Below are positions 2,984 to 58,315 of a DNA stretch of 64,000 nt, piece by piece; position 1 is the first letter of the stretch; every line of letters starts with the position of its first letter. Source of the DNA: Bugula neritina (taxonomy: Eukaryota > Animalia > Bryozoa). The position numbers and the translations under genes are program-made. Location: contig OZ037767.1 in the NCBI GenBank assembly GCA_964035545.1, forward strand, positions 15,070,998 to 15,134,997. Reading direction: 5' to 3'. Under the pieces are notes generated by a model. The model was not told the DNA's origin. It saw only the letters and a list, made by a program, of their open reading frames with translations, and did no database searches.

Positions 2984-3130
2984 ATTACTACTACCACTGA
3001 TACTAGTACTACAACTAGTACTAGTACTACAACTAGTACTAGTACTGCTACTAGTACTAGTACTACTAATAGTACTGTTACTACTACTACTACTAGTACT
3101 ACTACTAGGTCTACTACTGTACCAGTACAA
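2984..3130. repeat. Degenerate (ACT/AGT)n microsatellite
   Basis: Runs of CTACTA/CTAGTA; produces the spurious Ser/Thr-rich ORF 2942-3130. Confidence 0.85.
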
Positions 3131-6100: not shown

Positions 6101-6882
6101 ATAAAAATAAATGGATAAAAATTCCAATCATGGTTTAATGTGCCTATTTTAAGCTGTTAATTTAATTACTATAATATAAGTGCTCAAAATACAACTTTTG
6201 ATTTTCATAATTATGTTTTAATTTAATACAGATACCATAGCATCATATACGGTAGAATCAGTTGTATCTTATTTAATAATAAAGTAACTTTTTGCAGCTT
6301 TCACAGTTATTAATTATTCACTTGTTAGTCTTTGAACTGGGACAATGTTTGAAACTTGAAGTAGGATGAAGTTTGATTTCAGTTACCGCAATGGTATCTG
6401 CAGTCACAATAGGAATACGCATATAACTATGTTTATATTTGTGAAAAATATATAGTCAAAACTAGATAAGGTAATAGTAATTATAATTGGTTTCACTTTT
6501 AATATATTCCTATAAACTGGAAAATAGACAGAAGCATTTAATCATGAAAATAAACCTAGTGGAAGTAAATCAATTCACTAAGTATAGTAAAATATTTACT
6601 ATTCAGTAAGTTTATTTACTTTAGTTAATTGTACTTGATTATTTCTGTCGGTTTTTCAGTTGATTTTTCTACTTTTTGCTATAGCATATCAAACTACCAC
6701 AAAGTCATGCTTCCGTATTACAATTATAAACATAGTGTTCCTGTGTAATGTTATAGTAATGTAATAGTAATATTTGGATCATTGTAAGTATTTCTGTTGT
6801 TGTACTGATTGATAAATATTTTTTAGCTTGCATGGATATTTGCAACGATCAAGATGCCATTTGAACCTGGACTGGAATAAAG

Positions 6883-8247
6883 ATGGCAAATCGAGAAGCT
6901 AGCTACAATTATTCTGCTGAAAGAAACTTGGTAAGCAAAAATAAGCTGCAGCATTAAGCAGTAAGCAATATGACGATGAACTTTGCTTGATTTTGATTGA
7001 CCTTAAAATATCTGGTCACCTTTCACCAACGTGGTCCTGCGCGGGTGGCGGGTGACCTTAAAATGTCTGTTGCACGTAAAATAAATTTTGTGACAGTCAA
7101 AAGTATGCTGATCTTTTTCGTATTTCAGTGCATCGGTGTCTTAGCTTAAGAGCTGAACCCAACAATTATGATCTAAAGCTGTTTTTTACTAGAAAGTGAT
7201 TTTACTGTCTTTCTGATTATTCTTGGTTTTTCAGCTTGATGAATTGAATAAATGGATTTGATTTCGGGTATTATGTAATGGATGAAAGAAATTTTTCTTA
7301 AATTTGTACTGAGCAATTTTTGCTATTGCTATGATGTTTAGTGATAAAATTGCACCCTTAATAACCCTGAAAACTTTCATTACTAGCATTTGTTTATGTT
7401 CATTTTTAGGAAATTAAAATGAAGACACAACTCACCGATGCTATCTCACTGTGCCTGCATGCAGTTTATCTAAAAAGGTACTCCTATTAGCTGGCTCTTG
7501 CCCAATACCTGGTTGTCTCTGTAACTATTTTTTGCTCGCAGATGAGTTTTTTGAACTTGACATTTTATTGATTTTGAAAGTTATAGTGAGCTTTGAACTT
7601 GCTAGCATCGTTTTTTAAAGACTTGCTGCAGTTTTTATCAACATTTTTTAAGTCAATGGTGTTAGTTTGGAAGCTCTCTCACTCCTCTCTCTGTCTCTTT
7701 CTCCCACACCTTCCACTCAATCTCTCTCTCTTTCTCCCCCTCTCTCCCACCCTCCCTCTCTCCCACCCTCCCTCTCTCCCACCCTCCCTCTCTCCCACCC
7801 TCTGTCTCTCCCACCTTCTCTCTCTCCCACTCTCCGTCTCTCCCACCTTCTCTCTCTCCTAACCTTTCTCTCTTCCCTTTTCCACTATCTCTCTGACTCT
7901 CTCCCTTTCTCTCTTCTACCCCATCTCTCTTCCATCCTCTCTCCTAACCTTTCTCTCCCACACCCCCCCCCTCTCCCACTCTCTTTCTCTCTCTAGTTTG
8001 CATGGCTTTACCCAATTTTGGTTTATTTTTTTATCTTGTTTCAGAGTATCCAAAAGGAAAGCTAAAATTTATTTAATATATATTATACCAACTTGAGCTT
8101 TACATATAATATCAAATAAATGCTGTGTTTTGTTAAAACAATGTTTGCAACTTTGTAGTATATTCAAATTCATAATTTATTTGTAGAGTCACACAACAAG
8201 ACACTACTCTGACACACTCACAAGTTGCCACTGATCCAGCAGTATAG
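6883..8247 (+). CDS. Possible small spliced ORF (58 aa), or exons of a non-coding transcript
   Basis: Putative exons 6883-6930, 7410-7477 and 8187-8247 with GT-AG sites join in frame to MANREASYNYSAERNLEIKMKTQLTDAISLCLHAVYLKRVTQQDTTLTHSQVATDPAV*. No recognisable family. Confidence 0.2.
7673..7995. repeat. Polypyrimidine CT-rich tract with ~18-bp unit CTCTCCCACCCTCCCTCT
   Basis: Visible directly; the Leu/Ser/Pro-rich ORFs here are artefacts. Confidence 0.9.
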
Positions 8248-11200
8248 ATGATTGTTTTCTCCACTGGCTATGCTGTCACGCTTTACTGTTGTGGTGTTTG
8301 AAACAAACCAATTGTTTGCCTACGCAGATTAGGGTGAGAAAAAAAGTGAGAAATGAAAGCTGTTTTTAATACCAACTACACTTAGTTTTTATTGAATGAA
8401 AAACAAAGTGAAATCATTAGTTATCCGTTAAATGACTAAATCATTGTTTATAAAGATGAAACACAAATAATCTTATAATATGCTAATGAAATTTGGCTTT
8501 CAAATAGCTTTTTTCTGTATATTTGTTGAGGAAGTTTATCTTCAACAAAACTTCGTAGCTGTTGAATATGTGGAGAGTATTTTATATTGCATAAATTTAT
8601 AGAGTAAAAGGTTCTCATCAAACTTTTACAACTTAGCTCATCGACGGTTTAAAAGTGTGAGTCACCCTTCACACTAGAGTTTTATAAAGTTTTAATGAAT
8701 GTGCAGTATTTTATAAGATATTGTGTGTCTCGTAAATTTAGCTATTTCTACCTTTTCAGTGAGATTGGAGTAAACACACCTCAAAATTCACATCTGGTAT
8801 CACATTGATTTATCGCAAGTCAAAGTACACCTACTAACTCTTCCTTCCCTAATACCTGCTTGCTTTTGCACTTCTACTCATTTCATATACCTAACATTTC
8901 TCTTGCAGATGAATTACATCTTTTAAGTTGTAAAAGCCTTAAATAGCATGAAATTAATGAAGTTTAAACCGTGGCCACACTAACTATTGATGCGTTTATT
9001 GATGGGTTAAATTACACGAAAATATTGTCTCTTTCTTTTTAGTTTCACCTAAAGTATTACATACTATTGATGGAGGCTTTGCTGAAGTTTTTGGGTGATG
9101 ATTTGTCAATAATTTTCCAGAGAAGCTGGCTGGCATCATTATGCAGTTTCCAAATTTCTTTCGGCTTTGCTCTAGTGAAAATGTTGGAAAACAATCAACA
9201 AAAAGGTTTGTACCATAAACGAAGTTATTGTGTGCGTGTTGTCAAAGCATAAAGTGTGCTGGAAATTTTTGGGTTTCTGTTGAGATGCGTTTTTGCTTTT
9301 CCTGCATGAAAAAAGTTCCAGTTTCAGTTAATATCACTAGCGGAGTGCCCACCTATATTTTAAATCATATTGATGCATAAGTTCTTTTTGTAATATTAAA
9401 AGTATAACTTGCTTAATTGCTATTCAATGCCCTTTGAAGTTTCCAACTGTAATTAATTAGTTGATTTGGCAGCATAGTATCGATGATTGATGAAGGCAGC
9501 CGATATAATTATAAGCATAAATATCTATATCTACATGAAGATGTCATTCCCAATGATTGTTATTCTGAAATCAGCTGATTAAGTTATCACAAACTAAACA
9601 TTTTGACCAGCGGCTTGCAATGCAACTTGGTGAAATTTCAGACCTAGATAAATTGAATTTCTTACTGAAAATCGTGAAGGTATTAAAGTTTAAAGTTAAA
9701 GTTTAAAGGGTCATCTCTCTGCGAATTCTAATAGCATGGTGCCAATTAGACTTGAAAAAATTTCAAGGCACTACAAAGCACTAAGCCCATTCTTACAAGT
9801 AGTTTCAAAGTGCACTGGAATTTCAGTTTACTTGTCATTGTATAGAATCCTGATCTACACTATATAGCATTCACTATTGCCTGCTTCTTTTAAGCATCTA
9901 TAATGTATTAACTACAGTTTGCTTTGAGAAGTGAATTTCTACTTGGTATTTTTTCCTTATCATTCCGTTGTTTGCCAGTAGTCTTAATTTAATGGATTTT
10001 CCCTTTTCAAAAGTGGTTGTGACAATCAAAACACATCATGCAGCCTGCAACTACACAATCAGTTAGTAATTTCTTCCATTAAAGTAGCTCTTCTGGTTAC
10101 TCTTGCTCACCTAAAAGCCTGAGCCTCATTCAAATTGCAAGTTTTTAGAGTTGTTAATTTTTCATGCAGTCCTTCATTTTTTTTTTGTTAGGCACAAAAT
10201 TAGTATTCACTAGACCTAATCTTTCATCTGCATGTATGCCTATTGTTTGTTCATTAAAGAAAAACCTCTGCTAAATATTGAACTAATAATGAAAATAAAT
10301 TCCCTGAACTAAAAGTAGCAGTGTGATTTTGGTATTACAATTAGTTGTTAGCATAGAGTCAAGTTATTGACAGGAATTTTCAAATTGAAATGAATGAATT
10401 TCATTGTAAGTCAGCAAGATTTAGTCTAAGTAAACATAGCATTACATTGTGTTTTATTTAGCATTTGCAGAAGGCAACATATATTTTAAGGATTATTGTA
10501 AACTTAAATGTAATTTTAAGTACTTTCCATGTTTGTTATTGTAGATGGTCTTGTTCTTTGGGATGAATGTGACAACTCCTTGTGTCAAGCTTAACTGATT
10601 GACTACTGAATCCCAATCATATGTTTTGCCAAAAAATGTGAAAATGGAGTGCATGTCTACTTTGTTTGAAAAAATATTAAAAATACTTTTGAAACTTCAT
10701 CTAGCCAAACAATACAACAGTTTCATTTCATTAAAAAATATCATTTGCACAAAAATGTATTATGTAATCAAACAATTTCTAGAAAAAAAGTGCTTTCCTC
10801 CAGTTTTGCTAATGAACTAAATTTTTCATTATATGCTTGTCTTTATAATTTTATTAATTGTTTTTTCTGGTGAGTCAATTAAAGTCAATTCAACCTAGAA
10901 AAGTCTGAATTTCAGACTTAATTTCAAGCTAGAATATTCACATTTTTAGGTCTGCGTTTGCAAACATTGTTGTGTTACTTTACTTTTTATATTTTTTGAA
11001 ATAAATATCTTTTTAGCTTGTGCCTATTCATGATTAGAATAGTATAATAATATTTAACTTTTCTTCAATTTCAATAGATGAAAATGTTGATCAGTTGGAG
11101 TATTCAGTTTAGCTGAATTTTACTTGCTTCTGCGAAAACAATCTTTTGGAGTTGTCTGCCCTCTCTTTAGGTAATTTTTTGACCTATGGTCAACGCAATA

Positions 11201-20691: not shown

Positions 20692-23600
20692 ATGGAAACT
20701 GTGACAGGTTTGTATTTCACCATTAGTATTACATTAGTATTTCACTATTAATATTTGTAAGACTAATACTAATAGTAATAGTAATTGTATATTTTAAATT
20801 ATTTCTTAGTAGTTATAATTTAATTATTTAAATAAATAGTAGTATATGTAATTTTAATTGATATTTATAATAATTCAATAATAAATAATTGAATTATTAG
20901 GTTTAGCTACAATTAGTAGTATTGTACTTAATAAACTGTTGTTTTTTCTCTTATAATTATATTTATTAATTATGTTAATTAATATTAATTCTCTAACTAT
21001 CAACTATATCTATTGATATAAATATTGGTATAACTGTAAGTATTCATATTCATATTGGTGTATTATGACATCAAGTATGTACTAATTATTTTTACAATAA
21101 AATAAAATAATTCATTGAATAAGTTATTTAATATTAGCCTATAGTTATAGCTATCAGTCCAAGTTGCTGTAATCTATTTGTAGTATTTGTGATTATAAGA
21201 ATAATTAAAATATTAATAATAATATCTTTTTGTTGAATGTCAATTTCAGTTTTTTCTATATTCAATGTTTAATATCATAATTATGCTTAAAAATTAAAAT
21301 AACCTTTTACTGGAGTGCTGAAATTTTTGATTTATATCAATATTACTTCCACAGCCACTGTTACAGTTAGACTTGGTGTTACTCTTTTAGTTATACTTAA
21401 TTTTGCATTTGAAAGTTAATTTTACCCTTTAGTTTAAGGTAGTGTTTCACTTTCTGTTGCTGCAAGATTTGGGTGTTATTCTCAAAGTCAATCTTTAGCA
21501 CCTAATGTACTCCTATTCACACACTTTATTAACCTCAATGATGGAAAATAACTGAAAGTTGGTATTGCTTATTGCACTGTGACTGAGTAAATCTAAATTA
21601 CTTTAATTTTCATTGCATATATAATTTTCATTAACCTATTAAGAATTTTTTTTTTAGTTTGAAAGTTTCTGATACTAGGATGAATTTTAACAGTTTAAAT
21701 GTTGTAGTCTATTTTTGTGTTTTCTTGTGTTATATGTCTAGTTTGATTTGATATTTTGTCTCTTGGTTGTGAAGGGATTCGCCAAGTTTCTTAAATTAAA
21801 ATCTAATCCCAGCTTCACAGATAGGAATTATTATTTTAGCTCAAGAAAAGAGTGATAAGTCATCACAACAATCAGCAAAGAAAACGCAGTTTAATGTCAA
21901 CAAAACATCATGTAGTGATCGAGTCAATTCACTCCTCAGGTAGTTTGTAGCTTCTAGCTTTAAAATATGCTCATGACTGATAATCAGTAATTTGGTTCAT
22001 GGATTTTTTCAATTGTTATCCCTGCATAAATCCTAAGCTAATTTATGTTTTACAGGAGTCGTTTTACTTAAATTAGTACACACTCAAAATCTTCAGTTTT
22101 TAGCTATTTTTTACAATTTAGCTGCTAATGTACATAGATTTTTGCTCTAAACTGATAAAAATTTAAAAATACAACATAATGATCAAAATTATTTTTAATT
22201 TTCTTTGATTTTCTATGTTTATTCCTAGTTATTTAGTTAATTTGGATTTGGATTAAAAAACCTTGATGGTCCACAATCCAGATTACCTAAATAATTAGGA
22301 AAAACCATCGGAATTTAAGCAAAATTAAAAAGAACCTTGATTATTTTGTTGTATTCATTGACATTGTATTAGTTTTGGGTAAAAACCCATATACATTAGC
22401 AGCTAAATTGTGAAAAATAGCTAAAAACTGAAGATTTCGAGTGTGTACTAAATTAAGTAAAATGACCCACATTTTGTTTGGGTACTAACCCTAATTTTTG
22501 AAGAATGCTCAACATTCCTTTAATATATCAAAAAAATTAAAAATTTCAACTTGACTGTGTTGATTTTATTTAAGCTGAGATAATTGTTTAAAGTTTAGTT
22601 ATATTTTGTTCATGTAGGTGTATGTTCCGCTCTGTTTTAGGTACCTTCTAGTCAAATCGGTAGACCTGCTGTTGTTTCTCGTGCTGTTTTTATTTGTTCT
22701 CGCTCCCCTGACAGTTAAATTATTTCCGGGAATGGGCAAGCACTTCATATATCTCAATGGCTGTGAGTGATTCTCAAAACAAATTACCAAAACCTTTATA
22801 AAAGTTTCAATAATTATATATCAACCGGTGAATATTTACCAATGAAGTATTTTTAGTATTTAAATTATACCACACACATAACTATCTGTTTTCTAGTTTA
22901 AAGTTGGCTGAGTGATTTGTTTCCAATTATCTGTCTGTGTACTATATTAATTTATTCATTCTTTTTAGTGTCGTTACCCTCATACTTCCAGGATTTGTCT
23001 AACCCTGCTTTATATGGGTTGAATAGCACTAAGAATTTCTACCTCAGCACAGATAAGAATGTAGTTATTGGTGCTTGGTAAGTATGACATGGTTATGATC
23101 TACAATAACAACTTCTATCCGAAGCTTTGAAGCTATTATTTTGTCTTGTTTTATTACTGGTGGTCATGTTGATAATAAATTTTGCCAATTTTTTGTCTCA
23201 AAAAACAAGCTGAAAAAGTACCGATTTTAATGTAATTAGGTTTTTGCTTCAACTGATGTTTACCAAGACTCTAAGCATAATATGTGAAGCCACATTAAAG
23301 AACAATTTCAACATGAGTGGATGTTATCACAGCTGGTGTAGCAACTATTAGACAGTTGGTCCAAATTTCAGACAGTTTTTAGTTATTACAGATGTTGAGT
23401 TTTACTGAATCTATATGCACATTTTTATGCGCAATGCTTCCTTTATAATGACATTAACTCTTGTTACTAATATGCGCCGCTGCAATGTCAATGTTACTAA
23501 CTGCCGTTTTCACTACTGTACCATTGTAATATCAGGCACACTCTACCCAAGCAGCTGGAAGGCGAAGGATACAAACACGAAGAATATGAATCATTATTAG

Positions 23601-34580: not shown

Positions 34581-34977
34581 GGTTCATTTTATTTAAGTTA
34601 GTACATACTGAAGATCTCAAGTTTTTGCTAATGAACATGAGTTTTGGCCCGAAACTAAAAAAATATCAATAAATACACCTAAATAATCAAGGCTCTTTTT
34701 AATTTTCTTTGATTTCCTATGCTTTTTTTCTAATTACAGCAACTTCTGACTGGGGATCGCCACGGTTAGTTTGTAACAGTAGGCAATCCAAATGAAATGA
34801 ATAAATAGGAAAAAACATGAGAAATCATGCAAAATTAAGAAGAACCTTGATTATTTAGGTGTATTTCTTGATGTCTCACTAATTTTAAGCAAAAAGCATT
34901 GTTCATTAGCAGCTAAAATGTAAAAATGGCTAAAAACTGCAGATTTCCAGTGTGTACTAAATTAAATAAAATGACTC
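34581..34977. mobile_element. Foldback-type MITE, family copy 2
   Basis: Shares ATTAGCAGCTAAA, GCTAAAAACTG, GTGTGTACTAAATTAA and AGAACCTTGATTATTT with 22036-22468; inverted arms. Confidence 0.75.
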
Positions 34978-36930
34978 AATCACCTTTGCAACATAATTCA
35001 ATAATTGCATGGTCAAGCAGAATAAACTACAATTAACAGCAACAACAGTGTAATAGTTGCGTAGAAAAGTTGTACTGCAAAAAACTAAAAGAATGCAAAA
35101 TCTATAAATGTGTGCTACCAAGTAAATGCTGAACAGACATCATGAAATAGTGTACGAAATACAAACTATTAAACTTACCTGTTGATCTAATGCAGCCAAA
35201 ACCTTAAGCTTAGAGTAGTGGAATGGTGCTGTTCGATGTTGATATGCTACAAGTAGCTAAGATGACTCAAATTCTTGCCTTTAGGAGTAAGAGGCCTCAG
35301 CTCAGTTTCAACAAAACTTCCAATAATCTCAACGGATGCGCTCAATTAGGAGCCACAACAAAGCACACCCATGTCATTTTAGTAAACTCTAAAAAATGAA
35401 CGAAAATAAAACTGTTAGAGAGTAAACAGAGAAACATATAGTGATGGGGGAAAAACCTGTCAGCAAAGGTTAGATACACTCATAGCCATAACACGAAGAA
35501 AAAGATAATGAATAACAACCTATTCAAGATGACACAAGAAACCAAACAAATTTCTTTGACTAAAAATATAATTAAATACTATATTACTTGGCAAAAAATA
35601 TTTGTTTTGAACAACGTATTATTGGGAAGAATTGCCAGTGTCTTAAATTTTGAGATTAAAATTTCTGCCTTATAGCGGAAATAGAGAGGCAATCAATAGT
35701 GTACAAAACGTGTTTTCAGTCATTGGCTGTTGACTAAATTGACAAAGTTAAAGAAAGCTTCCATATCATTATTTATTTTGTTCTCAAGTGTGTGGTTACA
35801 GTTTCATGAGTCAGAAATATAATTATTTGAGATATGAAATCAAATGTAGTCAAAAGAGTGTCCTACAATTTAAAATGTAGTAATAGAGCTTTGACAATAA
35901 TTTCTTCTGCTAAGTAAAACAGGTACCATTATGTGCTACTTATCTTTTAGAGATGAACATCAAGGATGTTGAAAACAAAATAGTTGTAAATTACAGCAAA
36001 TACCTTTCTACTTACCTAACCAGAGAAAATAAGTTTTCAACCTTGCATGCACTCAGCTGGTTTTCAATGTTTGGATCAGTGACATCTTTATAACTGATAG
36101 CAGCATTATGTGATAGCTTTAGGAATTGTTACCTTAAATCTAAATTATATAAAACAAGAAGTGCAAAAATATGGCATTAGTACTCATTGCACAATACAAA
36201 CTTGCTAGAGTAGCTAATCTAGCATCACATTAATTTAAGAAAGACAAAATTTTATTACTGTTCACAAATGATGAATATTAAAATTTGAATAATTAGACAA
36301 ATTAACAATGATATTGATGCTACTTCAAACATTACCAATGGTAAACACCAAAATACTAATAGGAATAGTCATGTTAACATCAATTAGAAAAGTAAAGATA
36401 ATTTGAAAATGAGACAGTTTATAGGTCTAACTCTTATAGTTGACAAGCAATTACAGGGCAGTCATATTGATGTAGGCTACCCTCAAAATGTAGCACTTTA
36501 AAAATATTAAAAAGACAGCACATATAAGAACATAATCTTAAAAATAGGCATATGTGACACCTATATTTTGATTAACAAAGAAATCTTCTTTACTTTATTA
36601 ATATAGCTCATATAATGGTATTCTGTCTTAGTATGTTATTTTAATACTTGAAATCTAATCAGCTACAGAAAAGTACTTCAATTCAAAGGCCTTCATAATT
36701 ATTCTTTAGTTTGCTATTTAAATAGACAGTAAGGTTGATGAATAAAATAAAAGTTAGTAAAGTAAAAACTAAATAAATTGAGAATAATATCTCCACTCTA
36801 AGGTTATAATCCTTATAAATTAACATTTTAATACTCCTGTTATCCTTAGGTATAGTTGTTAGCAATTTAACTATGAGCTCGAAGCCAAATGTCAGTATCA
36901 GCATCCCCATTACATTGACTAAGACTGACT

Positions 36931-37039
36931 AGTAGTAGTAGGTGGATGGTCCTAGGACAACCCTTCCCCCGTCGAGTCTTTGACTCTCCGGTGTCAGGGA
37001 TTGTCCTAGGACGCATCCACCTACTACTACTCTATTAGT
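36931..37039 (+). repeat. Left TIR (109 bp, self-complementary)
   Basis: Exact reverse complement of 51317-51425; begins (AGT)3. Confidence 0.98.
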
Positions 37040-37220
37040 TTTTTTTATTAAGTTTTAGAAATTGTGCATTTTAGGACAGTTTATTATTTTATTGTCCTAG
37101 AATTGTACATTTTTTAGGGTAAACATTAACTTTTATTTTAAAATGTATTTACTCGTTACTATTAGTAATAGAAATAAATTATTATATTCTTAACGTATAA
37201 TAATTTATTATTAATAGCAT

Positions 37221-38117
37221 TTAAACGTTATAACTTGAAAATACTGGTAAAGATTCACTAGATTCTACTATATCTCCATCACTCGTTGATAATATTAATT
37301 TATTACCCGTTGCGTCTTGTAATTTAGGAATAGCGTGATTATTTATATTATTTATTGTAATAATATCGGTAATATTTATATTGGTTTCTACAATATTACC
37401 ATCACTCGAAAGCATTAATAATTTACCTCCGATTGACGGTTGTATTTTATTCATAGCAAAATTATTTATATTACTAGTTGTAACGACATCGCTAACGCTT
37501 AAGCTACTTTCCGCAATATTACCCGAAGTAGTTGAAACGGTTAATTTTTCATTCGCGGGTTGTATTTTATTTATAGCGAAATTATTTATATTACTAGTCG
37601 TAACAACATCGCTAACGCTTAAGCTACTATCTACAATATTACCCGTATTAGTTGATACGGTTAATTTTTCAGTTGGGTCTCGTATAAGAGGTACGGCGTA
37701 ATTAGATACATTAGTTTTTGTAACGACATCATCAACTTTTAAATTACTATCTATAACGCGTCCATCATCAGTTGATATAGTTAATTGGTTAATAGGGTTT
37801 TGTATAAGAGGTACGGCGTAATTAGATACATTAGTTTTTGTAACGACATCATCAACTTTTAAATTACTATCTATAACGCGTCCATCATCAGTTGATATAG
37901 TTAACTGATTAATAGGGTTTTGTATTTTAGGCATACTCGTATCATCAACGTATTTTTTTGTAGCCGCGTCTTGATCGTCAGCCGGATCAATGACTCTAGA
38001 TATTTTATTTTCCCCCATATCTAGCGTACCCGTAAGAGTACTACTACCGTTTATTAAAACGAATTTTTTCGTATTTATTTCCGTTTTTCCACTTCCTCCG
38101 AATTTATAAACACTCAT
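37221..38117 (-). CDS. Putative fibre/spike protein with six ~40-aa repeats
   Basis: LDMGENKISRVIDPADDQDAATKKYVD resembles a tail-fibre/YadA-stalk neck motif. It is followed by six 40-aa beta-rich repeats (120-bp period). Confidence 0.7.
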   Translation of the reverse strand: MSVYKFGGSGKTEINTKKFVLINGSSTLTGTLDMGENKISRVIDPADDQDAATKKYVDDTSMPKIQNPINQLTISTDDGRVIDSNLKVDDVVTKTNVSNYAVPLIQNPINQLTISTDDGRVIDSNLKVDDVVTKTNVSNYAVPLIRDPTEKLTVSTNTGNIVDSSLSVSDVVTTSNINNFAINKIQPANEKLTVSTTSGNIAESSLSVSDVVTTSNINNFAMNKIQPSIGGKLLMLSSDGNIVETNINITDIITINNINNHAIPKLQDATGNKLILSTSDGDIVESSESLPVFSSYNV

Positions 38118-38120
38118 TTA

Positions 38121-38879
38121 TTACGGTATATAAAATTCGTCTAACCCGTGTCTATACCTACCATTATTTTTTGAGGAAGAAAGATCTAAAGTAATAAAGC
38201 CGTGAGGTTTTTGCCATCCTTTATAACAAAAGTTTTTAAATTCGTTTAACGTTAAATCTCCGTTTACGTGATCTTGATATATATGATTTAAATTTTTTCC
38301 ATCTTGAGGAAATAAGCAAATAAAATTAGCGTTTTCTCGAATAGTGTTTCTAGGCAGCTTAAAATAATTTTGCGACAAATAAAAGCAATCGACATTATTG
38401 TGTCGTCCTCTTACGTAATAACTTTCACAAGTTTTTTGTTTTTCCAACATTAAATCATCGAATATTATTAAATTTTTATTATTAGCGTCTAATTTGCTAG
38501 GGTCATAAACGTCGTCACTAGATTCAATAAATTCGGCGTCTATATTACCGTTACCCTTACTATTTTTTAAAACACGAGTTACATTTATACCCGAATTTAT
38601 TATCGCGTCACTATTTTTAAAAAAATTTAAAATTTCTTCTTTAGTTAATTTACGTTCAAAAGCCTTCCTCATATTTATATATTCGGGTTGAGAAAGGCTT
38701 TTACCGTAAATCATAAGTTTATCGTAATCGAGCCAATTAGGTTGTAATAATAAATTACAAAGTAAAGTAGTTTTACCGCATCCAGATTTTCCAACGATAA
38801 GACCTCTTATGCTTTTAGGAAGTAAAGGATTATTATTACGATTAATTTCGTTTTTCCACGAAAGATTTTCTATTTCCAT
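38121..38879 (-). CDS. A32/FtsK-like DNA packaging ATPase
   Basis: Walker A GKSGCGKT, Walker B LIIFDD, RGRH motif, LSQ and IRENA. Confidence 0.95.
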   Translation of the reverse strand: MEIENLSWKNEINRNNNPLLPKSIRGLIVGKSGCGKTTLLCNLLLQPNWLDYDKLMIYGKSLSQPEYINMRKAFERKLTKEEILNFFKNSDAIINSGINVTRVLKNSKGNGNIDAEFIESSDDVYDPSKLDANNKNLIIFDDLMLEKQKTCESYYVRGRHNNVDCFYLSQNYFKLPRNTIRENANFICLFPQDGKNLNHIYQDHVNGDLTLNEFKNFCYKGWQKPHGFITLDLSSSKNNGRYRHGLDEFYIP

Positions 38880-38894
38880 TTATTATAATAAATG
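38877..38894. promoter_or_regulatory. Palindromic bidirectional initiator CATTTATTATAATAAATG
   Basis: A perfect 18-bp palindrome whose ends are the start codons of the divergent ATPase and PLA2-integrase ORFs. Function is inferred. Confidence 0.65.
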
Positions 38895-48400: not shown

Positions 48401-49134
48401 AAAATATACGAAATAGAGTTAACGTTAAATTAGTTACTAGCGAAAGCGAAGCTAAAAAGCTAACTAATCAGCCTAACTTTAAAAACTTCACTATATTTTC
48501 TGAAAATTTAATAGCCGTTCATATGAATGTAGTAAAATTAAAATTTGACAAGCCTATATATTTAGGTGCGGCTATATTAGACATTAGTAAAACTCTAATA
48601 TATGACTTTCATTATGGTTATATTAAACCAAAATATAATAAAAATGCGCAATTATTATTTACGGACACGGACAGTCTAATGTACCACGTAAAAACGAAAA
48701 ATTTTTATGAGGATATATTACCAGACATTACTAGAATATTTGACACGAGTAATTATCCTAACAATCACTCGTTACCAACGGGTATAAATAAAAAAGTAAT
48801 AGGTATGTTTAAAGACGAAGCCGGCGGTAAACAAATTACGGAATTTGTAGGCCTAAGAGCTAAATTATACTCTTACAAGATGGATGGTATGGAAGAGAAA
48901 AAATGTAAGGGTATTAATAAGACTACTCGTAATAATTGTATAACATTTGACGATTATAAAGAGTGTTTATTAACACGACGAGATCAGCTTAGAACGATGA
49001 ACGTTTTGAGAAGTCATAAGCATACAATGTACGCTGAAACAATAAATAAAGTAGCTCTGTCGGCCGAGGATGATAAGAGAATTATACTCGAAGACGGTAT
49101 AACTACAGTCCCTTACGGTTATATAAATGATTAA
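45454..49134 (+). CDS. polB: Protein-primed family B DNA polymerase with N-terminal terminal-protein region
   Basis: ExoI IYADFE, ExoII HNLSGYD, RKGVFPY, ExoIII YMKVDV, YLDANNLYG, KLMNNSVFGK and FTDTDS. Also a Rho-N-like N-terminus, NKCF...HY (OTU-like), a Zn finger and an EndoVII-like insert CYIC...DHCH...AHNNCN. Confidence 0.97.
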   Translation: MEFNTKITVKALKALAKERGLKRYSQLKKAELIRLLSPMDEPVPNIGQAPLIPTPVIKIMREIFTQTTRNIKKWVKGIVKPIAKIVNPIKDKIMALYNQPKLKEQAAKGWFQTYEIKGLPKYDIDSFSKLVKLNVIKLLKPTIKVKIFMYCEMEKINVRTGETIVEIMPFTSNIETILESTNINEIYDEIIERIKENFASLNAKGSSWTFKAIKKMEISINKYQPLNGSSWIDLPKEIKLKKAVINPKNEDNKCFMWAILMSIHTPKNHPERISNYKEYVNKFSWEGVEFPATKKSIDAFEEVNFDFGINVFTWDGKTINLWKKTKNQGKIINLFYISDDKKSHYAYIKNLNKLLGSQINKRVSAKHICVNCMNSFRSNESLKKHQNWCLTNDGVTTVFPKIENKIKFQSSHYCRSMRVPFTIYADFECFTKPIYGCKPNFKESYTNQYQQHEPSGFGYYIVSITGECNYRSYTKEAEDEDIGEQFIRLLEFDIKNLYKKHKFAKPMRITNSEQESFQLAENCYICEEKLGDDRVRDHCHLTRDYRGAAHNNCNLNYKIPKFYPIFIHNLSGYDAHLFIKNLGGEPSCIPNTEEKYISFSKKLLVDEFTNNKGEKIKVTREIRFLDSYKFMSSSLASLVANLKRDDFKHLQKHYIDCQKHYAEKQLDLLLRKGVFPYDYFNNVNVLNEKCLPPKEKFYSSLTESNISDEDYEHAQKVWREFNMKTFKDYHDLYMKVDVLQLADVFENFRNVCLKHYKLDPAWYYTAPGLSWDAMLKTTKLELDPITDVDQLLFFEKAIRGGVSMISHRYAKANNKYMENYNASEPSSYITYLDANNLYGWAMSKNLPVGNFKWMTEKRCKDLEKSLNFPPSFLEVDLEYSKKLHDSHKDYPFCPERIIINKVEKLVPNLNNKKNYVIHYKALKQCLMYGLKLTKIHKGITFNESNKLEKYIKLNTELRTLAKSDFEKDFFKLMNNSVFGKTMENIRNRVNVKLVTSESEAKKLTNQPNFKNFTIFSENLIAVHMNVVKLKFDKPIYLGAAILDISKTLIYDFHYGYIKPKYNKNAQLLFTDTDSLMYHVKTKNFYEDILPDITRIFDTSNYPNNHSLPTGINKKVIGMFKDEAGGKQITEFVGLRAKLYSYKMDGMEEKKCKGINKTTRNNCITFDDYKECLLTRRDQLRTMNVLRSHKHTMYAETINKVALSAEDDKRIILEDGITTVPYGYIND

Positions 49135-49540
49135 AATAAAAAATATAAAATTACAAAATAAAGCTCTCTCGAATATTGAATTAGAGTTTGCGATTAAAAA
49201 GTTAAAAATACCATTTTTTAGAGGAGTATTTTCAAGAAACGATTTACCCAATAAACCGCGTAAAAAAGAGTGCGGTATATTAAATTTAGACAATTTAATG
49301 GGTAACGGTACTCATTGGGTAGCTTGGTATAAAAATAACAATAAAAAATATTATTTCGATAGTTTCGGATTACATCCACCGCTAGAAATAATGAAATATT
49401 TAAAACCGCCTATATTTTATAACACGGAACAAGTACAAGAATTCGGTACCGTTATATGCGGACACTTGTGTTTATATTGGCTTAAAGAAATGTCTAAACG
49501 CGAGTCGCCTCAATTAATTATAAATAAATTACTTATATAA
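49127..49540 (+). CDS. Adenain/Ulp1-like maturation cysteine protease
   Basis: GTHWVA (His), YFDSFG (Asp) and Q...CGHLC (Gln/Cys). Confidence 0.95.
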   Translation: MIKIKNIKLQNKALSNIELEFAIKKLKIPFFRGVFSRNDLPNKPRKKECGILNLDNLMGNGTHWVAWYKNNNKKYYFDSFGLHPPLEIMKYLKPPIFYNTEQVQEFGTVICGHLCLYWLKEMSKRESPQLIINKLLI

Positions 49541-50053
49541 ATGACTTCAGTTTATATTTTTGGAAATTCGGCTAATATAATAAATGAACAACCGTATATT
49601 ACGAATATTATAATTCCGTCAGAATTTACGTATTATTTAGGAGGATTTACTACTACATTAATTAAAGATTTTTTAGTCGATGAACTGATTGAAATAACGG
49701 ATATATTAATACAATTTTACGGTGAACAAGCTCATAATACTAAAAAACTTTATTGGACTGATAAGCGAATAGGCTTACATATTAGAAATAGTACTGAATT
49801 ATTTAATCCATCCAATGAAAATACTTTTTATAATATAAGCGGTAATGAACACAATCTTCCGTTTAGCGAAATAAACGCTAATAAAATTATTGAAGCTAAT
49901 AAAAACTTTAAATTAACAATAGCGTTATCAAAAAATTATCCTAGTCATAAACCCAGTGACGTAATTTTAATCGACACTCCCGCTAGCGAAATAACCGATG
50001 CGGCATTACCCTTTCATTACGTATTAGTAAAACTTTATTATAATTATAAATGA
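49541..50053 (+). CDS. Tandem paralogue 1, beta-rich, putative receptor-binding/decoration protein
   Basis: Shares YWTDK, ISGxEHNxP and YPSHKP...DTP..EIT..ALPF with the next two ORFs. Function is inferred. Confidence 0.8.
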   Translation: MTSVYIFGNSANIINEQPYITNIIIPSEFTYYLGGFTTTLIKDFLVDELIEITDILIQFYGEQAHNTKKLYWTDKRIGLHIRNSTELFNPSNENTFYNISGNEHNLPFSEINANKIIEANKNFKLTIALSKNYPSHKPSDVILIDTPASEITDAALPFHYVLVKLYYNYK

Positions 50054-50583
50054 ATTCAGTATATATTTTTGGAAATTCGGCTAAAGCCAATATAATAAAT
50101 GAAAAACCGTATATTACGGATATTATAATTCCATCATATTTTTTATTTGATGGTAGATTTGATAAATTTGAAGGAATATTAATTAGAGATTTTTTAGTCG
50201 ATGAACCGATTGAAATAACAAATATATTAGTACATTTTTACGGTGAACAAGTTCATAATACTAAAGAACTTTATTGGACTGATAAACAATTAAGCTTAGA
50301 AATTAGAAATAGCGCTGACACATTTAAGTATGGTGCAGTCACTGAAAATATTTTTTCTTATGATATAAGCGGTGCTGAACATAATGTTCCGTTTAGCGAA
50401 ATAAACGCTAATAAAATTATTGAAGCTAATAAAAACTTTTCACTATTATTAACATTATCAAAAACTTATCCTAGTCATAAACCTAGTAATGTTATTTTAA
50501 CCGATACTCCCAATAATGAAATAACCAATACAGCATTACCTTTTCATTACGTAATAGTAAAACTTTATTATAATTATAAATGA
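50050..50583 (+). CDS. Tandem paralogue 2
   Basis: Same motifs; ATGA overlap with paralogue 1. Confidence 0.8.
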   Translation: MNSVYIFGNSAKANIINEKPYITDIIIPSYFLFDGRFDKFEGILIRDFLVDEPIEITNILVHFYGEQVHNTKELYWTDKQLSLEIRNSADTFKYGAVTENIFSYDISGAEHNVPFSEINANKIIEANKNFSLLLTLSKTYPSHKPSNVILTDTPNNEITNTALPFHYVIVKLYYNYK

Positions 50584-51104
50584 ATATTTATAAATTTAGT
50601 AAAGTCGATATAACGACTAATAAAGCGTTTATTTCAGGTCTTATACATAATAATAGATTTTATTATTACGAAAATATTAATAGCTTTACGGTAGATTTAA
50701 TTAACGATTATTTAGTAGATAAACCTATAAAAATAACGCACGCGTTAATACAATTTTATGGTGACCATTTTACTTGGGCTAAAAAAAGAGTATTATATTG
50801 GACCGATAAAAAAATAGGTTTACATATTCGTAATAGCGTAAATCCTTTTGATGAATCTAAAGAAAATTTATTTTATACTATTAGCGGTGCCGAACATAAT
50901 GTTCCGTATAGTAAAATAAATATTAATAAAACCGTTAACGCTAATAATAATTTTTCTTTTACAATAGCTCTTTCGAGTGATTATCCAAGTCATAAACCCA
51001 ATGACGTAGTTTTAATTGATACTCCCGCTAGCGAAATAACCGATACAGCATTACCTTTTTTTTACGTATATTTTAAACTTTATTATAATAGCATTCATGA
51101 ATAA
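50580..51104 (+). CDS. Tandem paralogue 3
   Basis: Same motifs with a more divergent N-half; ATGA overlap with paralogue 2. Confidence 0.8.
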   Translation: MNIYKFSKVDITTNKAFISGLIHNNRFYYYENINSFTVDLINDYLVDKPIKITHALIQFYGDHFTWAKKRVLYWTDKKIGLHIRNSVNPFDESKENLFYTISGAEHNVPYSKININKTVNANNNFSFTIALSSDYPSHKPNDVVLIDTPASEITDTALPFFYVYFKLYYNSIHE

Positions 51105-51316
51105 TCTACTAATAATTATTTTTTTTCTTAAAATAAATAATTTTACACTACTAATAAAATAATAAAAAAGTAAATTATTGTTATAATATTCTTCAAAAAA
51201 AAGTGAGCTAAAACCATCCACCCTAAAAATATTTTTTTTATTTTTAAAAATAAATATTTTTCTAAATAATATTATACTACTTTTTTATAATATTATACTA
51301 CTTTTTTATAATATTT

Positions 51317-51425
51317 ACTAATAGAGTAGTAGTAGGTGGATGCGTCCTAGGACAATCCCTGACACCGGAGAGTCAAAGACTCGACGGGGGAAGGGTTGTC
51401 CTAGGACCATCCACCTACTACTACT
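51317..51425 (-). repeat. Right TIR (109 bp)
   Basis: Exact reverse complement of 36931-37039; followed by TSD CTGACT. Confidence 0.98.
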
Positions 51426-51544
51426 CTGACTTTATAACCCTCAAGCTGTGGCACTCAATTTCTATAAGTAGTAACTAATAACAAATATAAAATTATTTAT
51501 TTGCTACTGATAGTGATAATAATAATAATTAAAAATAATAATAT

Positions 51545-54505
51545 GATCCATTAAAATAGAACTAATAAAGCCAACGACGTTAATGGTATGTCTAACTAAA
51601 CATGGCATGTCTCGTCTGGCAGTGGGTATGTGGAGGGCCAGGCAACCTACGGCCGTCAACCCGTTAATGGCACAACTAAAAGAAGATACTCAAGAGAAGA
51701 CAACAAAGTTGTCATGAAATGCTGCTTCAAAAGTACACCCAAATTGAGAGGTTATAGAAAAACAATGTATGAGCTCTGTAGACCTGGATCAAAGAATTAT
51801 TTAAAAAGAATGTGCAAACGCTGGAAAACAGAGGAGAGTTTAACATCAGCGAATAGAGACTAGCGGATTAAGCAAGAACTATGAAGAAACACAAGCATTT
51901 TATGGAAGAAGAACTCCATAAGATTGAAGAAGGAACCTTGCAAGAACTAGGCACATCAATTGGTGAAGAAGATAATGAAGAGCTAAATTTGCAAATAGAG
52001 GATGTTATAGTACAACATGAGATAGCATATAAATCAGCCATGAGAATTTTAAGAGTACCTAGTTCAGAGGTAGAAAAAGTGTTAGTAGAAAAATGATAAA
52101 TGAGCATAACAAACTATCTAATGATCGACCAACACTAAGAGCCCTTAGGCACATTGAGAGGGTCAAATTACTACAGGCAGTAAAACAGATTAGTGATGTG
52201 CTAAACTGTGTTGAGATTATTAATACCATTGAGCTTAATAACACCACCATGGCTTGTGCGAAAAATAGTAACAGAACAAGTGTGTAACAAAAAGGAAAAA
52301 GAAAAACTGACAATGTACAAGTATGGAAAATACGACTGCAGAAGAAATAAAAAGAAATTAGATCAGACTTAAGTAAAATAGCAGAGTGAAAAAGTAGAGC
52401 TTACAATGATTCATTGAGAAGAATGGTTGAAGAAAAATATAGGATAAAGAACAAAGAGTGTGGTGTAGTGATTGAAAAACTGAAGCAAAACCTGAGAGCT
52501 GTAAGCCAGAAGATAAACAGATATACAGAATGAGTTGATCAATATAATCAGAACACAATGTTTACAATGATAAGCGCTTTTATCAAGAATTACGAGGAAA
52601 TGAATACGTACATCTAAAGAGGCACCTGACAAGGAAATCAAAAGCATTCTGATAAAATATATGGGGTCAGCCAACTAAAAATAATACCAATGCAGAATGA
52701 CTAAATAAAGTTAGCAACAAATTGGAGCATATGTAAAGACAAGGAAATTAGATCTTAGAAACGATGCAAACAACTGGAATAGCAATTAATGTCATAAGGT
52801 TGATAAGAAAAAGCATGAAACCTGGAAAACACAACTGAAATACCTGGAAGAAAAGATAGGAGAAATAAAGATCAAACTAAGAATTTTCCAAGGAGACTCT
52901 TTATCTCTATCACTTTTCTCCAACTACCGATTCGCATGTCAGAAGCAGCTCAATGATGCAAATTTCGACGAGACAGAAAACAAACCATCTCCTATATGTG
53001 GATGACCTGAAGGTAAATAGGAAATCAAAGTGGGAACTGGAAGCTTTGGTAAACACTGCCGGGATCTTCACAAGGAATATAGAAATGAAATTTGGATTAA
53101 AAAATGTGCCACACTGGTTATGAGAAAGGGAAAGAAAATTAAGGACACAGGAATCAGTTTGCCTGATGAACAGGTAATCAAAGATCTGGGTGAGAAGCCG
53201 TATAAATATCTAGGAGTTCTTGAGATTGATGGAATACAAATATATGAAATGAAAAATAAGATCAAGGAGTACTACAAACAAATAAGAAAAGTTCTGGATT
53301 CAAAACTGAATGGTGAGAACACAATCAAAGCAATAAACACATGGGCAGTAACAGCAGTGCATTACACAGCTAGAATACTTGACTGAACTGTTTCATGAGC
53401 TAAAAAATATAGACTGAAAGACAAGGAAGCTAATGACAACAAACCGTGCACCCTATCCGAGAGCAGATGTAGGCAGGCTGTATTTTAGCAGAAGGGAAGG
53501 CGGTAGAAGAATGTTGTCAACTGAAAAATGCATAAAGATTGAAAACTGCGCACGTCAGACTACATAAATATAACATAGACTGATAGAAACACCACACTGA
53601 ATACCTTCCTAAAAGACAGAACAGCGGTAGAACTAAATAATGATAACGTGATAGAAAGAACTGATGAGTGTAAAGAAAAGCTTCACGTGGTCAATACATC
53701 AAAATGGTGGAAGACATGAAAGCATTTTCCTGGAACTGGTTGAAGTATGGTTGGCTGAAAAAGGAAACAGAAGGACTGCTGACAGCTGCGCAAAATCAAC
53801 TATTCACTACTAGAAATTATAAAGTGGCTATGATGAGAGAACAGGGTAGCAAGAAGTGTGGAATGTGTAACGCAAGAGACAAAACTTCGATGCACGTATT
53901 GAGTGAGTTTGAGAAGGTAGCAGAAGGAGAATATAAGAAAAAACACAACCTTTTGGCATTGATAATTTCAATAGTAGTTGTGTGAACTTCGTGGGTTTCA
54001 GAAAAGTAAGAATTGGTACGGCCATCAAGCAGAATAAGTACTGGAAAATGATAATGTGAAAACCTTGTAAGATTTTAACATACACACTGACGTAGTCATC
54101 AAAGTTAGGAGACCCGATATATTAGTAGTTGACAAGCATAATGCTGAAACAACGATAATTGATATCACAGTCCCTGTTAACTACAGAGTAAAAGAAAAAA
54201 ATTCGAAAAGTTAGGAAAATATCAGAATTTAGCACTAGAATAAACCCGCCTTTGGAAAACATCAAAAAAGTCATCCCGTTGTAACTGGAGCCTTTGGAGC
54301 TTTATACAAGATTGTAGACTGGCTGACACTACTTGGAGTAGCTGAAAACAAATGCTCATTAATTCAGCAGACACCCTTACTAGGATCAGGATAAGCTCAC
54401 ATCCTGAGGAAAGTTCTAGCCATTTCAGCCTAGTATAACTAGGCCAATGGTAAAAGGTTACACCAGCTAAAAAACTACGGTCAATCAACAATAATAATAA
54501 TAATA
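51545..54505 (+). mobile_element. Decayed R4/Dong-like non-LTR retrotransposon, near full extent
   Basis: 5' remnant RRYSREDNKVVMKCCFKS...GYRK, then the same RT/CCHC/RLE remnants as 1-1937. (TAA)n tracts flank both ends. Boundaries are approximate. Confidence 0.8.
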
Positions 54506-55550
54506 GTGCAGTTGGTTCTATTATTAGATTAGCATATCGATTATGACTTTTCGATTGCCACCCTGATACTATGAGTAAAATGTACAAGCATACGTGAAAG
54601 TATAGATATGATCATAAGTATAAAAATAGGTATAAGTATAAATATAAATATAGGTACAAGTATAAAACGAATGATTATATTATTAATAATATTAGTCAGT
54701 GATACCTATAACCGTAATGGTTTTTAGACTTACAGTTATCATTAACATTAGCTGAGTAATATGATTAGTTAAAATAATGGTATTCATTATCATATCATAG
54801 TTATAAGTTATAACTCTAGTCTCTAAAGAGCAACAGCAAGTGTAATTGGGATATTCATATTAAATTTCATATTCACATAGTGAAATGTTTATGTTATGAA
54901 CTAATTTATTCCTTCAACATTTAACTATAAATATGATTAACACTAACTTTGACCAGCAGTATTACTAAAAGAAGCGTATTACAAATATAAGATAATAAAA
55001 TTCTAGTAGTAGGACTAATAGTATTACTAGGTCCAGTATTATTCTTGTTATCTTATTCATCATTCATGAGTTATCAAATTTAAAATTACTACTTATTAGC
55101 ATCAGCATATAAAAAGTAAGATCATTAGGAATAATTGTCATGAGGTATGATCTATGATTTGCATTATTCATATATAGTTTAATATCAATATGATATATTA
55201 TTATTGCTGATAGTCTATGTTATAGTTAAATTTATACTTATCTTTACAGTTACCTATAGTAGCACTTATTAGTTATTTGTGGTAGCCAAACTAATGTTTA
55301 ATATTAATAAATTAAACTGAGTATCATAAAAGTGTTACTAAGAATTTTAATTATAATCGTAATGGTGATCATATTACTTTATTATAATTAGTATATTTTA
55401 TCATTAATGCTAAACTGAGTTAATGTATATACTTTGAGTTTTACTATTACTCATTATATTTACACTTATAGTAAAACTAAATATGTAAAAGTTATACTTA
55501 TACTATTATTATTCGTATTTCATTAGACTTACATCTAAGATCGCAGTCCT

Positions 55551-55700
55551 ATTACTACTACCACTGATACTAGTACTACAACTAGTACTAGTACTGCTAC
55601 TAGTACTAGTACTACTACTACTACTACTACTACTACTAATAGTACTGTTACTACTACTACTACTAGTACTACTACTAGGTCTACTACTGTACCAGTACAA
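55551..55700. repeat. Degenerate (ACT/AGT)n microsatellite, copy B
   Basis: Length variant of 2984-3130. Confidence 0.85.
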
Positions 55701-58315
55701 CTACAAACTTTGAAAATAACTGCAAGAAAGGTATGACTTACTCTTTTTCTTAGTCTTACTGTGACTCTCAGTCGTAATGTAAAATAAAATTGTGAACTGT
55801 AAAGTTAAACCCAAGGCTGAAATTTATTTAATTAAATTTAGACAATCTGAATCATTGGCTCAATCCTTGAGTTTGACTATTACTATTATTATTAGTGTTA
55901 CGATTGTGATTATCATTGGCATTATGCCATTATGATTATCATTATGATTGTAATTGTGGTAATTCTAACAATAATTATAATCATAAATTAAAAGGTAATG
56001 ATTAATGATAATTATTTTCATTTTGTAATCATAATGATAATCATAATGATGTAAATTTTGATGTAAAACCAAAATACTAAAATTAAAACTAAAAGTAAAA
56101 GTTATAAAATTAAATGATAAAATATTATAATGATAATTATTATATTTATTATATTATTATTGAATATATTATTTCATTAGAAAATAGGTTGCAGCTTAGC
56201 ATGATTAAAATTCAGTAAAAATTAGTTTACCAACAGCAAACATGCATGCGTCTTGTCAACATTCAATTCGTAGTGTCATAGCGAAGCCAGATTACTGGTA
56301 GTACGACTACTAGAACTACTACTACTAGTGATGGATTACAGATCCTTGGCGATTTTAGCTGTGAGTGACCTTCACCTCACATTCTCGTCATGTGCGCGGC
56401 ATTAGACTAAGTAGAGGGTATGAAGCACTGAGCTGGAAAAGAAAGAATATATTTTAATTATAGGTAATACTAATAGTAATATAATTTATGGTAATATATA
56501 GGTAATATTATTGAGTTCATTGGTATGGAGTATAGACCTATCACTGATAGTATCAGTATCAACTACCACTTACGTACTACTTCAACTTATAACTTACCTT
56601 CAACTCAAACTCAAACTGAAACTGCTTGGAATCATTTGTCTTTGATCATATTGGCATTGTCATTGTGATTGTAATAACTATTAATATTTTTAGTTCAACA
56701 TCAATGCCGAACATATTGTAATAACTAATAAGATAATCATAAGGTTGATATATTTTGCTAATACTAATACTAATAGTTATAGTAATAGTTATAGTAATTC
56801 AGTGTCACTCTCACTCTGGTGGAGTGAGACTCAGACTTAGAGTTAGAGACAGAGTGAGTCCGAGTAAGTCTGAGTGTTGGGAATAGTAATAGTCATATAA
56901 ATTTAAATTATGTTTACTTATTTCTAGCAATCACAATGGCAATAGTTATAGTAACTTTCACTTACTCTTAAATCATTGAACCTGAACTAAAAGTAAAATT
57001 AAGCATTATGATTATCATTATGATTATACCTATGATTTTATTATGTTTAAATTAAAAATCAATATCATGATAATATCATAGTGATAGACATATTATTGAT
57101 AAATGATAATATAAAAGTAATTTGATAAATTATACATTGATTTTGAATTAAGGTGATACTGATACTAGACCGGTACTGAAAGTGATAGTAATACTAATAG
57201 TAATAGTATTAGTCATATAAATTTAAGTTATATTTACTCATTACCGGCAATCACAATGGCAATAGTAACTTAAACTGTAACAGTAATGGTATGGGTATGT
57301 TTGAAATTGTCACTATCAGTATTGCTATGAATCAAAATATAATGCTATCATACCAATAATTTAAAATAATATTACAAAGCTTCAGTAGCAACTTTTACTT
57401 GTACCAGTTTGGAATTTTGAATTATACATATTCTTAGTTAAAGTCTTCAAGTTTATTGTCAAAATGAACTTGAAATTAAAGACTTAGTAGTAAAAATTAA
57501 ACTAAGACTGACTGTAAGTGACTAAGATTAGAAATAAGTAATTTTAAGTATCGATTTAGTATTTTTCTTACTCTTTGTCTTAAAATTGACTTTTATTTTG
57601 CACCTACTCCTGGTCAATGATTCTTTTTTCTATTTATATTACTATTGCTATTAGTATAATTGACTTAAATTTAATAATAGATATGATTATATCTTAATAA
57701 ATGTGATATTTGATTTTATGAATAGTAATTCGAAAACTCTTTGGTATTATTTATTTTTGATCATTGTAGTTATTATCATTATATTTGTATAATAATTATG
57801 ATTATCAAATTCAATATCGATATTTGTATTATGGTATGGATATCTGCCTCCATCCCATGTTCTGTTTTGCAGTGCCTTTTTACATTCACGTCTAGGTTCA
57901 CATTGCGATGGTCATACTGATAGCACTTGGGGATAGTGAGGAGCATAATGATTATCACTAATATTAAGATTATCGTTATTAGGATTTAGAATAATTTAAT
58001 AAACAAGCAACTTAAAACAAATGTTTTTACTAATATACATATTAATTACTAATATAAATATACTACTATGAATATTATAATTATTATACTTTACAATTCA
58101 AAGTAAGATAATCATAATACGAACTGGTAAAACTAAATATAAAGTAAATGTAATAATACTAATAGTAGTTATCCATTCCCCTTTGGTTTCACATACTAAT
58201 AATTGGAAACCTCTGTCCTAATATTATTTCTATTAATATTGCTCAAAGTTTGATCCCTATTTAATTTTATAGTTCACTCACCAGCTACATAATTTTATTA
58301 AAATACATGTGGTAT

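Follow-up and report, generated by a model that had tools for sequence, protein, structure and literature searches.

Why should an otherwise ordinary Polinton, which encodes its own protein-primed polymerase, carry at each end a terminus that folds back on itself almost over its entire length? The question is raised by a stretch of 64,000 nucleotides from the bryozoan Bugula neritina (GenBank assembly GCA_964035545.1, contig OZ037767.1, positions 15,070,998 to 15,134,997 of the forward strand), hereafter the window, whose coordinates are used throughout. The window contains an element of 14,495 bp at 36931-51425, flanked on both sides by the 6-bp TSD CTGACT. Other repeats are also present in the window, including a near-identical segmental duplication (1-8574 and 52569-64000), the second copy of which is interrupted by roughly 2.9 kb of inserted sequence bearing long inverted arms (58314-61179), as well as two related foldback-like repeats with inverted arms (22056-22466 and 34626-34977).

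The element is an otherwise ordinary, intact Polinton. In common with the Polintons and Mavericks described in the available text of PMC8097293, PMC8502044 and bioRxiv 2023.08.22.554363, which include animal elements of the adintovirus type, it possesses a pPolB with TP and vOTU domains, an rve integrase, a packaging ATPase, a DJR capsid protein and a candidate protease. Its 109-bp TIR and 6-bp TSD fall within the Polinton ranges (100-1500 bp and 5-8 bp, respectively), and its (AGT)n//(ACT)n ends match the (AGT)2//(ACT)2 type of this group. The closest named relatives of its capsid protein are from a scallop and a bryozoan (55-58%). The genes and the target site are arranged as follows:

36925-36930, plus strand: left TSD, CTGACT
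37221-38117, minus strand: ORF of 298 aa with internal repeats of 40/41 aa
38121-38879, minus strand: A32/FtsK-type packaging ATPase (Pox_A32, E 1e-8)
38892-40256, plus strand: rve integrase (PF00665, E 1e-8, above the cut-off)
41541-42809, plus strand: DJR major capsid protein (PF21738, E 1e-57)
42810-43568, plus strand: probable minor capsid protein, assigned from its position and its conservation in related loci, without a Pfam match
45454-49134, plus strand: pPolB of 1226 aa, with TP-like and vOTU domains, an exonuclease containing an EndoVII-like insert, and polymerase motifs A, B and C
49127-49540, plus strand: adenain-like maturation protease (Peptidase_C5, E 0.004, below the curated cut-off)
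51426-51431, plus strand: right TSD, CTGACT

The integrase ORF combines DUF5679, PLA2-like, rve and chromo domains in a single frame, with D188, D248 and E277 as candidate DDE residues of the acidic triad. Three tandem paralogous ORFs of 170-177 aa, without a Pfam family, occupy 49541-51104 near the right end. An empty allele exists, as contigs of runs X8, X1 and X2 join position 36930 to the flank from 51432 onward, and this allele together with the flanking TSD indicates that the outer AGT ends served as integration ends. The insertion site (36700-36930 and 51432 onward) belongs to a high-copy host repeat, the summed contig depth of which runs into thousands.

The polymerase of this element is full length, and both its exonuclease and its polymerase motifs are intact. 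TP and vOTU domains of polinton pPolB have been described (PMC11161782/bioRxiv 2024.03.18.585575, available text), and a structure model of residues 85-420, based on 23 sequences (pLDDT 82.8), shows the topology of four strands and two helices described for the polinton terminal-protein domain. Matches of the model to known folds are of middling strength, comprising Y-family little-finger domains for the TP-like region (VIA Z 7.9 and 7.1), the OTU fold for the vOTU region (Z 7.8), and Foldseek matches with E-values of 0.007-0.02 for residues 85-420. The candidate linking residue, Ser206, lies between helix 2 and the last strand and is present in 21 of the 23 aligned rows, the remaining two having gaps, while the vOTU catalytic pair (Cys254 and His344) is found in all 23. 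Given that both domains have been kept, the model suggests that protein priming is probably retained in the element.

The TIR on which such priming would act is composed almost entirely of a hairpin. The perfect repeat of 109 bp comprises 101 nt that fold on themselves and 8 nt outside the hairpin, and its parts, together with the adjoining stem and the opposite end, are listed below:

36931-36964, plus strand: outer arm of the left TIR, starting with (AGT)3 and abutting the TSD; integration end
36965-36995, plus strand: hairpin centre of 31 nt with a 5-bp inner stem
36996-37031, plus strand: inner arm of the left TIR, which repeats the outer arm in inverted form and in which A37000 and G37013 are unpaired
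37032-37039, plus strand: non-hairpin TIR stretch of 8 nt, delimited from the 109-bp perfect TIR
37059-37112, plus strand: weak second stem, containing a fifth copy of the arm 9-mer at 37092-37100
51317-51425, minus strand: right TIR, 109 bp, with the 101-nt hairpin in mirror orientation at 51325-51425

The two arms form 34 Watson-Crick pairs, and both extrahelical bases are located in the inner arm. When folded as DNA, 36931-37031 reaches -39.3 kcal/mol (-42.1 kcal/mol for the opposite strand), an energy matched by none of 200 dinucleotide shuffles (z about -11). Positions 51325-51425 are the exact reverse complement of this segment, and the 18-nt terminus accordingly occurs four times in the window compared with an expectation of 0.01. 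An earlier note on this DNA, made from the letters alone, had described each TIR as a 101-nt bulged hairpin whose arms pair apart from two single extra bases, with a GAGTC-TTT-GACTC stem in the 31-nt centre and the same structure repeated at 51325-51425; refolding against shuffles, the two unpaired bases, the presence of the central stem and the fourfold count bear out this description. The palindrome GTCCTAGGAC, to which the same note had drawn attention, is indeed present in each arm but is not conserved across copies. It was rejected as a functional feature because variants in other copies disrupt GTCCTAGGAC, with changes at 37007 and 37010 breaking the palindrome and leaving the arm-to-arm pairing intact. 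Beyond the hairpin, the fold of 37032-37160 was equalled by 3 of 200 mononucleotide shuffles, and an attempt to read 37032-37150 as a complete but decayed hairpin copy was discarded, as 24 of 500 shuffles scored as well. In addition, 11 nt of the outer arm (36940-36950) are found again, apart from one mismatch, at 51213-51223 on the minus strand, about 200 bp inside the right end. The outer arm (36931-36964) is likely to be the protein-primed origin.

This terminal hairpin is real and lineage-restricted. Alignments of the major capsid protein and polB covered 2 + 80 + 11 loci (two contigs being included twice), mostly without element ends, and ends were examined in 83 sequences (82 loci and the window), most of which likewise lack them. 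Four loci with capsid identities of 51-57% (L028, L038, L070 and L077) have AGTAGTAG termini; the first 78-81 bases of L028, L038 and L077 are homologous, their outer flanks being unrelated, and the terminus of L070 represents a second family. None of these four termini has an inner-arm copy (best scores 12-22, compared with 55 here) or a stable fold (-2.5 to -11.2 kcal/mol, compared with -39.3 kcal/mol), and four other candidate end motifs also lacked a hairpin when folded. Scans for terminus patterns gave 3 + 1 + 4 matches, none of them a hairpin end, with no match in phages, and scans of viral contigs with a single major capsid protein or ATPase gave no match. The TIRs of L001 and L095 are clipped at contig ends and therefore provide no test for a terminal hairpin. 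L095 is a related element of 9.8 kb whose clipped TIRs (1-493 and 9332-9821) are homologous to the L038 terminus, and which matches the polB, protease, ATPase and probable minor capsid protein, with no match to the integrase or major capsid protein.

Closer copies of the element permit the two arms to be compared. Variants of the element ends were read from public Logan contigs (5 of the 11 runs listed), the arm comparison was based on 127 contigs from three runs (X1, X8 and X9; run X6 yielded none), and the variant figures rest on 18 of 43 loose-end rows and 24 of 129 pieces. Eight substitution sites are listed, all of them in the inner arm, with outer-arm variants appearing as loose ends. 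The arms lie on separate contigs, none of those listed spanning both, so that we infer which variant arms belong together; on this basis, complementary outer-arm changes exist for six of the eight inner-arm sites (36998, 36999, 37004, 37005, 37007 and 37010):

37010 G>A, matched by 36951 C>T
37007 T>C, matched by 36954 A>G
37005 C>G, matched by 36956 G>C
37004 T>A, matched by 36957 A>T
36999 and 36998 G>A, matched by 36961 and 36962 C>T

In run X1, one outer-arm contig holds all six changes plus one added base, and one inner-arm record (record 6, assigned by depth sums) holds the six partner changes plus one added base; as one base has been added in each arm, the A bulge survives in this variant. 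In a more diverged variant from run X8, the arms complement each other at 10 of 11 distal positions and the A bulge is replaced by a mismatch; a third variant again shows one added base per arm, its arms being derived from different runs and its outer row mixing three contigs. A37000 is thus not fixed, being shifted in one variant and replaced by a mismatch in another. The two other sites, 36997 and 37003, belong to the same further variant, for which no outer-arm partner occurs among 18 of the 43 loose-end rows. Near 36939-36941, changes are found in outer-arm rows as well as in a single inner-arm record, without being exact complements, and one outer-arm row of X8 (three contigs, agreement 0.91) has a different reading over 36943-49, where an additional base may be present. 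The earlier note had made its reading depend on an inner arm that is present in related elements and covaries with the outer arm. Both features are found in close copies, in which six of eight sites covary, whereas the inner arm is missing from the termini of distant relatives (0 of 4). From these sequence comparisons, it appears likely that the fold-back shape has been kept by selection.

Other copies also display back-jumps, from 37074 to 37002 and from 37089, 37094 and 37107 to 37069-72, which represent additional tandem copies, either of the loop together with the inner arm or of a subterminal unit that contains the arm motif. At 37022-37039, an identical AT-rich sequence stands in runs X9 and X1 ahead of a short repeat of ACT and the 8-nt TIR stretch, an arrangement that may reflect a further, internal copy of the inner end.

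The second unpaired base behaves differently from A37000. G37013 is retained in every clear row among the contig rows listed, and the same rows contain no indels at 36948-49 or 37013-14, no substitutions at 37011-37039 and no strand-changing joints, so that both G37013 and the orientation of the hairpin look fixed. Flip/flop isomers are likewise absent from the rows listed at a 1% share, a figure that applies to contigs from which rare variants are dropped. The interpretation tentatively favoured here, at a little short of even confidence, is that each end acts as an asymmetric fold-back structure that supplements ordinary protein-primed replication.

An explanation that seems rather unlikely, yet survives better than the other alternatives, is that the hairpin is a by-product, in which the inner arm would have arisen from one fold-back copying event and been kept matched by template switching, remaining functionless in an element that replicates through an ordinary panhandle. 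According to the available text of PMC8604942, template switching homogenises the arms of inverted repeats and generates clustered multi-base changes, and the matched runs of changes and matched indels described above resemble such products. However, inversion of spacers is reported by the same source as a further product of switching between molecules, and the rows listed contain none. That the region rearranges is implied by the additional copies of the subterminal unit and of the loop with its inner arm, and the restriction of the hairpin to one lineage would also fit such an explanation; on the other hand, neutral copying should sometimes erase G37013, of which no case is listed, even though neighbouring positions have changed at at least six sites.

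It is improbable that the arms function instead as duplex DNA, either as inverted binding sites or as a cruciform recognised by the integrase, pPolB or the EndoVII-like domain for release of the element. A role of this type would accord with the recurrence of the arm 9-mer at 37092-37100, which in X9 shares a T>C change with the arm, and with the EndoVII-like insert (pPolB residues 523-554, within the exonuclease), whose motif is intact. Matched indels and changes at about half of the distal positions nevertheless suit pairing rather than fixed sites, and the asymmetric 31-nt centre disfavours cruciform extrusion. The full EndoVII-like motif is found in 16 of 27 covering tblastn rows from relatives, L095 among them, with a TIR homologous to a hairpin-less terminus; the nuclease is therefore not tied to hairpin ends, and the link to excision drawn in the earlier note is left without specific support. 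HNH inserts in pPolB have, moreover, already been described and ascribed to homing-endonuclease capture in the literature text available. EndoVII as a hairpin-specific resolvase was dismissed as unsupported, the motif occurring in a family without hairpin ends.

Very little credence can be given to the suggestion that the 101-bp unit is a MITE-like mini-element that moves alone, the Polinton being a composite bounded by two such units. The unit does have AGT...ACT ends on both sides, and one X9 record (record 23, depth 68 of about 9275) shows 12 unlike letters past 37031. However, the summed depth is sustained across this position (37027-31 versus 37032-36: 1030/1030 in X1, 9240/8200 in X8 and 9275/9050 in X9, the drop in X8 being one unitig that ends at 37031 without a loose end), indicating that the inner end nearly always continues into the 8-nt TIR stretch, and the window contains no solo 101-bp unit and no TSD at the inner ends. 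Neither the mini-element nor the flip/flop isomers envisaged in the earlier note find support in the contigs, which can reveal the presence of isomers or solo units and not their absence. Finally, it is scarcely credible that the lineage has given up protein priming and replicates by a parvovirus-like rolling-hairpin mechanism with terminal resolution, a notion in line with the layout of the TIR (a palindrome plus a short outside stretch) and with the hairpin priming suggested for palindromic ends in the available text of the Halocafeteria preprint cited below, but opposed by the conserved TP-like domain, candidate linking Ser and vOTU catalytic pair, by an AGT end motif that is the ordinary Maverick one (PMC8097293, available text), by the lack of any Rep/HUH family in the 16 ORFs scanned against Pfam (10 of which have no family at all), and by the absence of flip/flop forms among the rows listed.

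With regard to the favoured asymmetric fold-back end, it follows from the geometry that the 3' terminus of either single strand can form an exact duplex with the inner arm, leaving the remaining genome as template, a configuration that yields a self-priming 3' end and not a new open duplex origin. The folding of an end on itself, as envisaged in the earlier note, would be compatible with this geometry. Under this model, TP-primed synthesis would begin at the outer AGT repeat and displace one strand, which would snap back locally ahead of the formation of a 14-kb panhandle and extend from its own 3'-OH. A further TP-primed round would then generate a dimer with a single palindrome at the junction, from which initiation at the outer arm would restore the normal genome and initiation at the inner arm would produce a flipped isomer. 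The extra G37013 may shift the spacing of the inner copy by one base and thereby keep it inactive, so that one orientation would persist, comparable to the GA/GAA asymmetry at the left end of MVM; silencing of the inner copy by a one-base spacer would account for the retention of the bulge as well as for the presence of a single orientation. In the integrated state, such silencing might also block an outward-firing origin or the use of a wrong integration end. Template switching between the arms would be a likely source of the matched changes, with selection deciding which of them survive. Several points speak against the model, including the greater stability of the full panhandle (-147 kcal/mol, loop cost ignored, compared with -81 kcal/mol for two local hairpins), the hairpin-less ends of distant relatives and the middling fold matches. 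The more specific proposal of hybrid replication, in which protein priming would serve the first strand, an adenovirus-independent, parvovirus-like self-priming would copy the displaced strand and the inner origin would be silenced by the bulge, is possible but doubtful.

Known systems offer partial parallels. In AAV, the ITR consists of a terminal palindrome followed by a short repeat stretch outside the hairpin (the D sequence), with a 3' self-priming geometry; its ends occur in flip and flop forms, and Rep is used. The stretch at 37032-37039 is positioned like the D sequence and the 3' self-priming geometry is similar, whereas no flip/flop forms were seen among the rows listed and no Rep among the 16 ORFs scanned. 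Some parvoviral ends occur in one form only, according to the literature text available. At the left end of MVM, an imperfect terminal palindrome with a one-base difference between its arms, the doublet arm is the origin and the triplet arm is inactive (PMC1185569, available text). This end is like the one considered here, and the comparison serves as a works-like model only, given that MVM is an ssDNA virus nicked by NS1 (same source), that no NS1-type gene was found here, and that silencing by G37013 is a conjecture of the model.

Among eukaryotic mobile elements, the nearest precedent is a preprint of July 2026 (bioRxiv 10.64898/2026.07.28.741278), the available text of which reports terminal palindromes in virophages of Halocafeteria seosinensis (subtypes 1, 2, 5 and 6) as well as in PLVs of subtype 4 and, with parvo- and poxviruses as analogues, proposes priming by hairpins. 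As in the present element, the palindrome lies within the TIR and adjoins the TSD. Unlike it, however, the Halocafeteria palindromic elements are from a protist and preferentially carry non-pPolB replication genes, with palindromes of 52 nt in subtype 5, and the available text reports neither covariation nor bulge asymmetry; the present element combines the hairpin with an intact TP-vOTU-pPolB, and it is the AGT terminus itself that has been duplicated. The present element also differs from described Polintons in that almost all of its TIR duplicates the terminus in self-complementary form. Hairpins or palindromes are not mentioned in the available text of PMC8097293, bioRxiv 2023.08.22.554363 (on nematodes) or PMC8363768, nor are hairpins in that of PMC8502044, and the literature compared, likewise as partial text, also included PMC11296320, PMC12220804 and PMC8242256. 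Hairpin ends of animal Polintons with pPolB are unreported among the literature matches listed, a set that does not extend to Kapitonov and Jurka 2006, Pritham 2007 or Repbase.

The exit of Polintons from the chromosome and the copying of their second strand currently rest on a model without direct evidence. The outer and inner arms, one or two bases apart, represent a natural control for the choice of origin and of integrase end, and short natural pieces of DNA suffice for testing both. The locus extends terminal palindromes, which have been reported mainly for non-pPolB elements of protists, to an element with intact protein-priming machinery, and it bears on the origin of hairpin ends among eukaryotic DNA viruses. 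If the proposed hybrid replication is true, this Polinton lineage would stand, as a functioning intermediate form, between the protein-primed eukaryotic DNA viruses and those with hairpin ends.
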